A stretch of DNA of 64,000 nucleotides from Dictyostelium discoideum (GCA_000004695.1 CM000150.2:2496001-2560000), one strand, 5' to 3'; positions 8,587 through 43,899 are shown, counted from the stretch's first letter. The notes: generated from the sequence alone by a model not told the origin. Program-made: numbers and translations.

Positions 8587-8699
8587 TAAAATTAAATCTG
8601 AATTATCAACTAAACATCTTTTTGGTTCAATTTCTAAATACTTATTCCCACATATATTATAAACGTTGTTTATTAATTGATTTAATTATAGTATCTGAA

Positions 8700-9723
8700 T
8701 TAATTTTGCCTATTTTTTAAGAATATTGGTTTGGTAATTTAAAAACACAATTTTAAAAATATAAATTTCTTACCAATTGTGACCATTTATTTAAATAAAT
8801 AACTCCATTCCATATATAAGGATCACCATCATTCTTTTTTTTAACCAAAATATATTTATTCATTAGACCATCCAATTATTTAAAAGTTTTGATAGTTTCT
8901 TTTGCCAAAATTTTACTCTCAATTACTTCCAACTTAATGACTCCTGTTTTTTTCTCGTCAACCTTTTTTTTGAGGTCTTCAGAATAGAAAGAGGCTGATG
9001 ATACCCTTTTTGCTCCAGAACCTGGAAAAACTGTATTAATGGTTTGAATATTTAAATTACCATTAATAATATACTTTGGAATAATATGAAGTTCTTCTTT
9101 TGACAAAGTTATACAAATTGAATGCTGCGCGTGTTGATTATCTAAAGTCCCTGTACCGTAATTATAAAGAGGATGATATAAGGTTCTGGAGATTTTGGAA
9201 CACTGTGAATTACATGAATTCCCCCTTCTTCATTCCAAATAAAAAATCCTTTTGCATGTGCCTTTTTTAACACATGAAACATATGAAAAAAAAAGAATTA
9301 ACAACAAATTATAATAAAAAAAAAATAAAAATAAAAATTTAAAATTAACACATACACTATTATCTCCACGGGTTGATCATTATAGGTCAAACTATTATAT
9401 ATAGTTTTACCAGAGCTATTTGGATAACTCTGTTTGTATGTTGATGCAATTGGGTTTGGCTCATGCGGATTCCTAATATTATAATAAGCTAATTCATTAA
9501 TCACCCTATTTAATTCATTATCAGTATAAATAGCACCTCTACTGTGACTCAATTGTTCTAAAACCCACCATTCAACATTCTTTTCTATTTTAACTCCATC
9601 TTTATCTATAAACACCTGACTTTTTGTATAAACATTTTTTGTTGTTATACATTTTGGAGGAACACAATAAATTTGTGATATTAATAAAAATAAATATAGA
9701 ACTATTATATATTTATTTTTCAT
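8700..9723 (-). pseudogene. DNase II-like gene, copy 1: 5' remnant (exon 1 plus disrupted exon 2), 3' exon lost
   Basis: Exon 1 (9298..9723) is intact, with signal peptide MKNKYIIVLYLFLLISQIYC and a GTATGT donor. Exon 2 begins AHAKGFFIWNEEGGIHVIHSVP, then frameshifts (…SPEPYIILFIITVQGL*) relative to copy 3. It carries an in-frame TAA where copy 3 has GAA (…KTFK* versus …KTFKELDG). After the exon-2 donor, the sequence diverges from copies 2 and 3 (duplication boundary near 8650-8700). Confidence 0.5.
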
Positions 9724-10113
9724 TTCTTAGATCTAGTATAAAAAAAAAAAAAAAAAAAATGAATCTATTTTTGCATTGAAATCTAAATTTGGATTTTTTT
9801 AAAAAAAAACGAACGAATTTTTGTTTCAGAAAAAAAAAAAAAAAAAAATTGATTCTTTTTTTTGTGAAAAAAAAAAAAAAAAAATGAATCTATTTTTGCA
9901 TTGAAATCTAAATTTGGATTTTTTTAAAAAAAAACGAACGAATTTTTTTTTTATTGTTTTCGAGCATCTCTACAAATCTTTTTTAATTTTTTTTTACGAA
10001 ACAGTTCTAAAATGTTTAATTTTTTTTTTTTTTTTTTTTTTTTTTTTTTCTCAAAAAAAAATTATTAAATCTCAGAATATGTTTTTTTAAATCATATTTA
10101 AATTAAATAAAAA

Positions 10114-42000: not shown

Positions 42001-43393
42001 TAATTGTTTAAATATCAATACTATATCTCCAAATGAAGTTCGTTGTATAGTGTTGAAATCAAGTGCAGGCACTAAACAATTAACATTAACCTATGAAAGT
42101 TATCAACCAACCTATTCACAATTCACTCACAAAAACGATGATGACAGTGATAGCCACGATGATGATGATAAAGACAATAATGGACCAAAAGATACCATAA
42201 TAAGTATTATCGGAAGTGCAATTGGAGCAGCAGTATCAGCAGCCATAAGTAGACTAATAACAAGCATTTTCATTGGTGGAACATCAGTAGCCACAGCAGC
42301 AGCAACAACAACTGCAACAGGTACCGCGATTGCAACAGCAACTACAGCGTCAACAGCAACAGCTATTGCCGGTGCAACGACCGAAGGTGTTGCAGTAGTC
42401 TTTACAAGGGTATCAGTAATAGCAGCAACTGCAGGTGGTGTTGTTATTACTGCAATTGTAACAGCAACAGTCATTCTTATTTCAGGTGGAAGTACACCAT
42501 CACCAACTCCAACTACAACTCCAACTATTTCACCAACTCCAACACCGACCGATAACTATTGGGTAAGATGTATGGTCGATTATTCAAGATTAACTTTACA
42601 AGTCGATAATCTTTACGGTCAAGATATAGTATGTATTGATGGTAATGGAATTTCATCAATTTTCAACGAATCATTCTCTTGTAAACCTGATCTTATTAAC
42701 GATGGTATGATATGTGCTCAACAACATCAAGATGGAACAAATTCAACAACCACATTTGGTAATTCAACATTAATTTGTCATATTGACTCAACAAAATCAT
42801 GTGAAATTTCACCACCATTCATCATACCATCCGATCCAATTGAAGATGATGAATATTCAAATATTTTAGAATGTCAATATAATCTCATTGAAAATTCATT
42901 ATCAACACACTCTAATAATAGTCCATTAAGATGTTATAATAATGAAACTGAAAATTACTTCACTATGAATACTACACTTTCATGCTCAAAAGATGAATCA
43001 TTAAGTCAAGATAACAATACGATTTCTTGTTTAGCAGATACAGATGATACTCAAATCTTTTTCTATAAGAACTCAATTACATGCATTACAGATTATCCAT
43101 ACTATAGATGTACAATGAAATCTCAACCATCACAAGATGATAACATAATTCCAGAACCAACATTACCACCAACTCCATCAATTGATGATGATTCCACATG
43201 TATTTATGATTCAGCCAATCCATATTCAATAGATCTCCAACCAACGATTGGAACTAATGTCAAATGTCCAACAAATGAAAAAGAACTTCATTATGATCTT
43301 TCAACTTATCTAACATGCACAGATAATACCACCCATAAAAACTCCACTTATTCGGTTTCATATTCAACTTATGTTTGCATTAAAACAAAATAA
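33046..43393 (+). CDS. giant MRH-repeat plus IPT/TIG-repeat glycoprotein, copy 3 (intact); 7 exons: 33046..33680, 33861..34337, 34424..34861, 35054..35111, 35240..37735, 37813..38846, 38917..43393 (about 3204 aa)
   Basis: Same architecture and splice positions as copy 1. Differences: 6-aa and 1-aa insertions in exons 3 and 4, two fewer IPT units, and many point substitutions. Exon 5 begins LYYGIGNTVNYCALIGYAPGVDYQACS…, different from copy 1. Confidence 0.65.
34897..35019. repeat. (AAT)n microsatellite, about 40 units, in intron 3 of receptor-like copy 3
   Basis: Perfect ataata… run seen directly in the sequence. Confidence 0.8.
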
Positions 43394-43899
43394 AAACAAT
43401 TAAAATAATTTTTAAAAAAAAATAAAAAATAAAATGAGATAATGGTTTTATCAATAATTTAATTTGATACAAAATTCATTTTTTGTGTTTTTACATGTAT
43501 AACATTTTAATTATTGTTTACTAATATTAATATTAATTATTCCTCTGAATATTTCTAATTAATTTTAATTTTTTAATAAAAAAACTAAATTATTTTTAAA
43601 CTTTTTGTGACATTGAATGTAAAATTATAGCTAACTATCCAATTAATACTTTATTAATAGTAATAGTAATAGTAAAGGTAAAAGCAAAATTAAAAAAGAA
43701 ATAGAAAAACTAGAAAAAGATAAACAGGATGAAATTAAAAATCAAAAAAATGATAAATTCAATGGTCTAAATCAAAAAGAATAGTAATTCAATTATGGCA
43801 TCATCTTCATATTTTCAAGCTTCATTTTTTTATTTGATTAAACAATAAAAAATAATTAAATGTGAAAATAAATGATATTTATTTTAAAATAGAATTTTT

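Follow-up and report, generated by a model that had tools for sequence, protein, structure and literature searches.

Whether two neighbouring genes that are duplicated together also work together is the question raised by a stretch of Dictyostelium discoideum chromosome 1 (GCA_000004695.1 CM000150.2:2496001-2560000), referred to here as the window, that is, the whole 64,000 nucleotides analysed (∼25% G+C). It contains a tandem array of three units, in each of which a DNase II-like gene on the minus strand stands head to head with a giant gene on the plus strand that encodes MRH and IPT/TIG domains. The pairing is a trait of the gene family rather than of this locus, although it is not universal. 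The module, a DNase II-type enzyme and a CI-MPR-like/TIG giant protein encoded by divergent, co-duplicated genes, appears undescribed: literature searches returned no paper on the pair, in keeping with a preliminary description of this DNA that had not recognised it as a known system, and searches with the AX4 gene identifiers gave incidental mentions only. The genes themselves are already known: the AX4 reference has listed them since 2005, either as hypothetical or as 'MRH domain-containing' proteins.

An array of divergent gene pairs

Homology limits and offsets from self-BLASTN place the whole array at 8697..43464 (no strand assigned) and divide it into unit 1 (8697-20916), unit 2 (20917-29689) and unit 3 (29690-43464), which bears out the three-copy tandem cassette and the boundaries proposed in the preliminary description. 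Units 1 and 3 are 80-95% identical, and unit 2 with its flanks (19920-24527) is 94% identical to 28694-33355. The start codons of the paired genes are 390 (unit 1), 483 (unit 2) and 548 bp (unit 3) apart, within the 390-550 bp given earlier for the shared intergenic region. The window proteins match those of a second assembly (GCA_054883475.1, contig JBTAPE010000039.1, ∼2.43-2.45 Mb, locus tags ACTFIT_), which appears to belong to the long-read set of PMC12745789, a set that includes the AX2 lab strain, and which probably represents that lab strain. The three AX4 orthologues (DDB_G0270850, DDB_G0270848 and DDB_G0270480) are all annotated as hypothetical.

Both genes of unit 3 are intact. The nuclease gene (29862..32497, minus strand; ACTFIT_007952, AX4 DDB_G0270850) encodes 798 residues in four exons (32497-32120, 32018-31524, 31462-29981 and 29903-29862), and the derived model is identical to the deposited ACTFIT_007952. 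It also agrees residue for residue with DDB_G0270850, except that an intron is left unspliced in the AX4 model, which looks wrong in retaining intron 1 as 20 extra residues. The giant gene (33046..43393, plus strand; ACTFIT_007970, AX4 DDB_G0270480) encodes 3197 residues in seven exons (33046-33680, 33861-34337, 34424-34861, 35054-35111, 35240-37735, 37813-38846 and 38938-43393), again with an exact match between the derived model and the deposited ACTFIT_007970. One intron of this gene holds a perfect (AAT)41 microsatellite (34896-35018), and the matching intron of unit 1 is much shorter.

The uneven decay that had been reported for the other two units was also recovered. In unit 1 the giant gene is intact (10114..20856, plus strand; exons 10114-10748, 10913-11389, 11460-11879, 11982-12036, 12121-14619, 14700-15733 and 15828-20856), and its spliced model has no internal stop and gives 3382 residues, the length of the called gene. 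The accompanying nuclease pseudogene (8771..9723, minus strand), delimited by blastn and by tblastn with the unit 3 nuclease and DDB_G0270642, retains exons 1-2 only (9723-8771), interrupted by a frameshift close to 9185 and by an in-frame stop that follows ...KTFK; the homology breaks off at 8697, and the 3' exons are gone. The deposited ACTFIT_007954 (419 aa; window 8110-9723) looks wrong, since it joins the dead nuclease exons to an unrelated open reading frame (ORF) and skips the HAKG motif. In unit 2 neither gene is whole. The nuclease gene (21195..23734, minus strand; AX4 orthologue DDB_G0270848), mapped up to its short last exon, carries a 4-bp deletion near 22030 that shifts the frame just past the catalytic domain, and the AX4 model stops at 514 aa. 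The deposited ACTFIT_007953 (775 aa; 21195-23734) spans this frameshift and likewise looks wrong, so that several gene models are corrected here. The giant-gene pseudogene of unit 2 (24218..29629, plus strand), followed through tblastn segments in different frames and blastn deletion junctions, lacks ∼aa 104-212, 1384-2463 and 2674-3016, changes frame many times and has lost over half of its coding sequence.

The two intact giant paralogues differ by many substitutions and in TIG repeat number, as described previously. The difference in repeat number resides in 282-bp tandem repeats of one TIG domain each (16987..18248, plus strand; detected by TRF and as a gap in the protein alignment), of which TRF counts 4.5 copies in unit 1 and 2.5 in unit 3 (40094-40791); the two extra units in unit 1 account for the 185-aa difference in length. 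For the giant genes the dN/dS ratio (nonsynonymous to synonymous divergence) comes to 0.48, and its hot spots fall in the first and fourth MRH repeats (R1 and R4).

The intergenic regions, delimited by alignment and given no strand, lie at 9724..10113 (unit 1, 390 bp), 23735..24217 (unit 2, 483 bp) and 32498..33045 (unit 3, 548 bp). That of unit 1, which was also compared by blastn, has its closest match in the sequence between the two genes of the DDB_G0270642 pair, which lies at another locus. Unit 3 has a 48-bp tandem duplication (32893-32989) whose core, AAATACGGTTTGGAAAATAC, occurs once in unit 2 (24119-24138). A promoter motif common to the pairs was not found: neither unit 1, nor the rest of the window, nor any other locus compared contains the 20-bp motif that units 2 and 3 share.

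The nuclease and the giant protein

Pfam matches to DNase_II, TIG and PRKCSH_1/MRH uphold the domain assignments of the preliminary description. The unit 3 nuclease matches Pfam DNase_II (PF03265) over nearly the whole profile (positions 7-324 of 326) at 123.4 bits and E 1.5e-35, against a cut-off of 23 bits, and carries the HxK motif twice, at H128-K130 and H414-K416. Across the 27 family members that were aligned, H128, K130, H414, S415, K416, R450, G451 and G452 are invariant, the last three belonging to an RGGG signature. The unit 3 nuclease alone gave no meaningful match among PDB sequences. The family profile reached a single one, bacterial DNase II (5i3e), which it aligned on the second catalytic motif (DHSK...GDLN...RGGG), and the nuclease has the features of the DNase II/phospholipase D fold. 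Given the invariant HxK motifs and RGGG signature, the Pfam match over the whole domain and the alignment to bacterial DNase II, the nuclease is most likely catalytically active. A pseudo-enzyme was considered and rejected, because the catalytic residues are invariant across the 27 members.

The nuclease begins with a signal-like segment, read from its sequence, and every family member has a C-terminal domain of ∼330 residues (aa ∼472-798) with invariant cysteines. Eight cysteines are invariant across the alignment (C25, C176, C437, C456, C600, C607, C730 and C755). The C-terminal domain is modelled at pLDDT 79 with no significant structural neighbour and no known fold, and it is the part of the nuclease that is most diverged between lineages (16-19% identity). 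The family is strongly depleted of N-glycosylation sequons: shuffling predicts 8-9, yet members have 0-3, and D. dimigraforme has zero; no sequon is common to the whole family, N103 being kept only in part of lineage A, and the depletion coexists with the signal peptide and the invariant cysteines. The giant protein, by comparison, has 53 sequons against 55 expected from composition. Among nuclease paralogues dN/dS is 0.55-1.3, an uncorrected Nei-Gojobori count on few changes in a genome of ∼25% G+C that reads only as 'far from strong purifying selection'.

The giant protein begins with a signal peptide and four CI-MPR-like MRH repeats (33046..35626, plus strand, for unit 3), recognised from the exon structure and a repeat profile. 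R1-R3 are encoded by one exon each, ending in a phase-2 intron, and R4 by a 58-bp micro-exon and the start of exon 5 of the seven. A profile of eight MRH repeats matches CI-MPR at E 8.3e-15, best to domain 9, with the sugar-pocket residues Gln, Arg, Glu and Tyr aligned; the same profile also matches ERLEC1, glucosidase II beta and CD-MPR. All four pocket residues are present in R3, and the set is complete in R4 of copy 1, in contrast to copy 3, where Gln is replaced by Ser. R1 and R2 are degenerate, with two or more of the four residues missing. Pfam PRKCSH_1 scores 27-28 bits on sub-regions, against a cut-off of 23, and 21.7 bits, under the cut-off, on the whole protein; the AX4 orthologue is labelled 'MRH domain-containing protein' in UniProt.

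The MRH array is followed by a first TIG block, a middle region (M2), a second TIG block, an acidic stretch, a hydrophobic region, a Pro/Thr linker and a Cys-rich domain. Pfam finds TIG in 13 stretches at E 3.2e-136. M2 (aa 1369-1712; 37813..38846, plus strand) is conserved at 35-44% identity across three deep lineages, and its N-terminal ∼170 residues have no Pfam match. The acidic stretch and an Ala/Gly/Thr-rich region with two hydrophobic segments were located by hydropathy (42182..42490, plus strand), the peaks falling at aa 2807-2817 and 2872-2891. In lineage C the protein has the same domain order, with a clear transmembrane segment, a basic loop and a second hydrophobic segment. From the two segments and the lineage C layout we infer a two-helix membrane hairpin that would leave both large parts of the protein outside the cytosol. 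The ∼100 residues of the anchor region (aa ∼2795-2897) are rich in Ala, Gly, Thr, Ile and Val, with small-xxx-small motifs (IIGSAIGAAVSAAIS), and resemble glycine-zipper membrane segments. The Cys-rich C-terminal domain (∼280 aa in three similar modules, after the Pro/Thr linker; 42551..43390, plus strand) is rich in sequons, has no convincing Pfam match and is kept in lineage C and in D. dimigraforme remnants.

A search with the MRH-array region against 1.84 billion representative proteins gave 16 matches at E <1e-3, and the named ones are all from dictyostelids or another amoebozoan. A homologue search with the N-terminal 934 residues returned three short fragments only, and the 3,000-aa proteins were missed. 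With repeated IPT/TIG domains and a membrane anchor the giant protein has the attributes of the Tiger (Tgr) family, and the giant genes may belong to one of the tgr subfamilies that duplicate fast and have no assigned function.

Recurrence and origin of the pairing

Head-to-head pairs recur at several loci outside the window, as expected if the two genes are duplicated as one unit, which is how the preliminary description had read them. A second array of the same design lies at 1.34 Mb on the same contig (L001; DDB_G0270642, DDB_G0270644 and relatives), and the DDB_G0270642 protein is the same in AX4 and in the ACTFIT_ genome. In lineage B (L006; D. cf. discoideum) a nuclease that is ∼38% identical stands head to head with a 4314-aa giant gene, and in lineage C (L007; DDB_G0290837 type) a nuclease that is ∼34% identical is paired with a 2513-aa giant gene. 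By tblastn both large genes have the same MRH-M2-TIG architecture, and their start codons face away from those of the nuclease genes. The C-terminal domain is found in the lineage C giant gene; the 3' end of the lineage B gene falls outside the stretch compared. The lineage C locus also holds part of another DNase II gene at its edge.

A lack of co-localisation of the two genes in other dictyostelids was one of the findings that, by the preliminary description, would have refuted it, but they do co-localise. In D. purpureum (L010) the MRH/TIG gene DICPUDRAFT_77883 stands head to head with a DNase_II gene whose product has a signal peptide and both HxK motifs, and in D. dimigraforme (L003) the nuclease gene has what is left of a giant gene upstream of it, on the other strand. 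Both partners have diverged alike across the lineages (34-39% identity for the nuclease, 35-44% for giant M2), which fits duplication as a unit. Two genes with identifiers adjoining family nucleases, which might be giant partners, have been mentioned in other contexts: rrgB (DDB_G0270640), which is RasD-repressed and whose knockout alters cell-fate bias (PMC6251973), and DDB_G0290839, which is down-regulated in a dnmA mutant (PMC12405889).

The array itself is a birth-and-death assemblage, and its history is not that of a simple recent triplication. When giant copies 1 and 3 are compared in blocks of 100 codons, dS varies along the gene between 0 and 0.38, and blocks with raised dS have raised dN as well. 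At its nuclease/promoter end, unit 1 resembles the DDB_G0270642 pair 1.1 Mb away (86.5% identity) more than it does units 2 and 3 (82% to unit 3). Because dS varies so widely and the nuclease/promoter end of unit 1 is nearer to a distant paralogue, the data indicate that the array is a mosaic of repeated unequal exchange and gene conversion among paralogues rather than the product of one recent triplication followed by decay. Thus the three copies and their decay, as first described, stand, and the simple recent triplication does not. A mobile element was considered as the vehicle and rejected, since the units lack a transposase or reverse transcriptase and the retroelements beside some loci are separate insertions. 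At one D. purpureum locus (L004) an ORF of a Ty3/gypsy-type long terminal repeat (LTR) retrotransposon, with protease, reverse transcriptase, RNase H and integrase, lies upstream of the nuclease at 1983-6224.

The genes that flank the array are ordinary ones, encoding ESF1, a ZIP transporter, an EMP70 protein, a UbiA prenyltransferase, a cation-efflux protein and a C2-domain protein. Directly to the right of the array, an ORF at 46013-46876 (minus strand) has TIG, teneurin-like EGF and DUF7949 matches and encodes a TIG/EGF surface protein of another kind than the giant MRH/TIG proteins. To the left, a tRNA-Lys(UUU) gene (7576-7650) lies ∼1 kb from the array boundary at 8697, and a direct repeat of ∼300 bp (5384-5688 and 7128-7454, 87.6% identical) copies the 5' end of a 444-aa ORF (5983-7317, minus strand). 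The N-terminal 60 residues of that ORF recur in a 67-aa ORF at 5384-5587, and Pfam gives no match. A tRNA-Ser(AGA) gene (62667-62748) lies toward the right end of the window, close to which there is also a short tandem duplication with units of ∼140 bp that are 95.6% identical (62881-63175).

What the pair may do

We tentatively favour, with a probability of roughly 0.4, a co-regulated lectin-adhesin/nuclease module that would act at the cell surface or in the endo-/phagolysosomal lumen and be linked to feeding, because the nuclease is predicted to be active and secreted, the giant protein is lectin-tipped, the promoter region is short and shared, and the linkage is persistent. A short bidirectional promoter would drive this conserved two-gene module. 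The first gene would supply the secretory pathway with a DNase II-type (phospholipase-D-fold) acid nuclease with a family-specific, disulfide-bonded C-terminal domain. The second would encode a giant membrane-anchored lectin-adhesin with four CI-MPR-like MRH domains at its tip, one or two of them with complete sugar-binding sites, a stalk of ∼13-17 IPT/TIG domains, a probable two-helix hairpin anchor and the Cys-rich C-terminal domain. While the amoebae feed, the two products would act jointly: glycan-bearing material would be caught by the giant protein, which would probably also keep the nuclease in place through protein-protein contact, so that DNA would be degraded where material is captured. 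The module would multiply by unequal crossing-over, patched by gene conversion, and single copies could decay independently because paralogues would substitute in trans.

The nature of the contact is suggested by the near absence of glycan sites on the nuclease, which makes a protein-protein contact more likely than one of mannose-6-phosphate (M6P) type. The candidate surfaces would be, on the nuclease, the C-terminal domain and, on the giant protein, those MRH repeats that are degenerate or variable. Binding of IGF2 by CI-MPR domain 11 is a precedent for protein-protein contact by an MRH domain. The feeding context, in turn, comes from expression. Dedifferentiation is set off by the return of cells to food. 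According to published data, DDB_G0270480 seems to be induced when cells are re-fed and to be minimally expressed in development (PMC7190356), its membership of the focused gene set in that study being deduced from the assay used. Expression on re-feeding points to feeding rather than to developmental kin recognition.

Several observations weigh against this interpretation. Knockout of DDB_G0270480 gave a wild-type result in the one assay described (PMC7190356). Three other DNase II-like genes of D. purpureum have no giant neighbour, although one of them (L004) is uninformative on pairing because of the LTR retrotransposon and an assembly gap upstream; an intact nuclease gene on chromosome 5 (L005) stands beside only a tail-to-tail remnant of a giant gene; and the giant gene of unit 1 has been kept with no working nuclease. 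On the protein side, the giant protein, judged by a topology read from sequence only, has no evident cytosolic tail for receptor cycling. The nuclease is unlike the ordinary, heavily glycosylated lysosomal hydrolases, and the depletion of its sequons indicates that the MRH domains probably do not bind it via N-glycans. The dN/dS values come from few changes, counted uncorrected in an AT-rich genome, and the co-expression, physical interaction, localisation and feeding role of the pair are what we infer rather than observe.

That the two genes are neighbours with no joint function, sharing a bidirectional promoter region and paired as a by-product of segmental duplication, is unlikely but is the alternative that survives best. 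It would explain an array built from whole-segment duplications in which either partner may decay alone (as at unit 1 and L005), the three D. purpureum nuclease genes with no giant neighbour, and intergenic sequence that is not conserved between lineages, the 20-bp motif being confined to units 2 and 3. It is opposed by the persistence of the head-to-head arrangement in three lineages at ∼35% protein identity and in D. purpureum, since chance linkage should break over such a time; in this genome the tgrA/H/I/O genes 'frequently insert in new locations' (PMC12745789).

A recognition or attack system directed at other amoebae, whether polymorphic self/non-self recognition or a contact-dependent toxin used in kin discrimination or macrocyst cannibalism, is distinctly doubtful. 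The co-duplicated, head-to-head pair with a TIG membrane protein and birth-and-death decay recalls the tgr clusters, and the module is a variant of the paired birth-and-death gene clusters known from that family. Like tgrB1/tgrC1 and the paired tgr genes it is divergent, with a short shared intergenic region and an IPT/TIG membrane glycoprotein, and like them it is dictyostelid-restricted and duplicated as a unit into clusters with many pseudogenes. A co-evolving ligand/receptor pair is a possibility. The tgr partners, however, are both TIG membrane proteins that bind each other, whereas the partner here is a DNase II-type secreted protein, and the giant protein is about three times longer, with MRH domains, a hairpin-like anchor and the Cys-rich C-terminal domain. 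The giant gene is apparently expressed on re-feeding, in contrast to tgr expression at 8-10 h of development, and its reported minimal expression falls in development, when kin discrimination acts. The analogy to tgrB1/tgrC1 allorecognition drawn in the preliminary description therefore does not hold, given the enzyme partner, the apparently low developmental expression and the wild-type knockout (PMC7190356).

Other points favour a role in recognition or attack. Nuclease dN/dS is high, if counted from few changes, depletion of sequons would suit a protein that crosses membranes, and DNase II-like proteins act as toxins elsewhere, plancitoxin being an example (PMC4148230). Other isolates carry only nuclease relatives that are <90% identical to the window copies, the closest being 76-81% identical. 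Orthology between isolates is not established, however, which leaves polymorphism undemonstrated; the window's proteins do not differ from those of AX4, and no immunity gene is evident.

It is marginally less probable still that the pair is a classical sorting system, in which the giant protein would be an M6P-receptor-like cargo receptor that binds phosphorylated or sulphated N-glycans on DNase II and delivers it to lysosomes or phagosomes. In animals DNase II is a lysosomal, M6P-tagged enzyme and a classical M6P cargo. The proposal suits the domain logic and an old question on Dictyostelium: the MRH repeats are nearest to those of CI-MPR and keep Q/R/E/Y, the giant gene appears to be induced on re-feeding, and CI-MPR too has an MRH array in which only some Q/R/E/Y sites are kept, with its domain 9 as the best match, and a DNase II-family partner. 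Set against this are four MRH domains rather than 15, a TIG stalk, an anchor that is hairpin-like with both ends on the same side and the lack of any evident cytosolic tail bearing sorting motifs. N-glycan sites are nearly absent from the nuclease, none being family-wide and D. dimigraforme having zero. The genes, besides being linked, exist in many copies and evolve fast, and neither a long TIG stalk nor a quick turnover of copies is expected of a housekeeping sorting receptor.

More speculative, and with low odds, is a eukaryotic counterpart of contact-dependent nuclease systems, in which a fast-evolving, glycan-free toxin of DNase II type would be presented by the giant protein, or passed by it, to nearby cells, whether other amoebae or prey. 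The nuclease C-terminal domain and the variable MRH repeats would set partner specificity, and the pair would form a second, nuclease-armed recognition system beside tgrB1/C1. Bacterial contact-dependent inhibition (CDI) and polymorphic toxins (CdiA, Rhs) likewise tie a giant, repeat-rich surface protein genetically to a nuclease, in cassettes that duplicate and leave orphan and decayed copies. In Dictyostelium, unlike in those systems, the nuclease is a separate secreted protein rather than the C-terminus of a filament, there is no evident immunity gene, the organism is eukaryotic and delivery into other cells is hypothetical. Lineage-specific expansions of secreted DNase II that keep HxK and go beyond lysosomal housekeeping are represented by Trichinella spiralis, with ∼125 DNase II-like genes, and by plancitoxin-1 of the crown-of-thorns starfish (PMC4148230). 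Those proteins differ from the present family in having no 330-residue C-terminal domain and no linked receptor gene reported, and the dictyostelid genes number about ten per genome and lie in cassettes. Very improbable, finally, is a selfish toxin-antidote element with drive in the sexual cycle, which tight linkage, copy-number turnover, fast evolution and an antidote-only copy (unit 1) might suggest, but which is at odds with the toxin-only locus L005, the improbability of a 3,000-residue multi-domain lectin as antidote, the extracytoplasmic location of both products and the age of a pair common to several species.

That the head-to-head order is kept down to ∼35% protein identity argues strongly, on genomic grounds, for a functional partnership, and its recurrence in old paralogues and in D. 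purpureum makes it very probable that the two genes act together. The pair links a CI-MPR-like lectin family with the apparent main DNase II homologues, which were unconnected before in Dictyostelium. To our knowledge, Dictyostelium has long been reported to be without mannose-6-phosphate receptors that can be detected. The organism is a model for phagocytosis, lysosome biology and self-recognition, and the partnership, if true, would provide a tractable genetic entry to the targeting or tethering of acid nucleases in a professional phagocyte, or to a new recognition/attack system. More generally, some rapidly duplicating TIG genes, regarded so far as adhesion genes that stand alone, may be accompanied by a gene for an enzyme partner.

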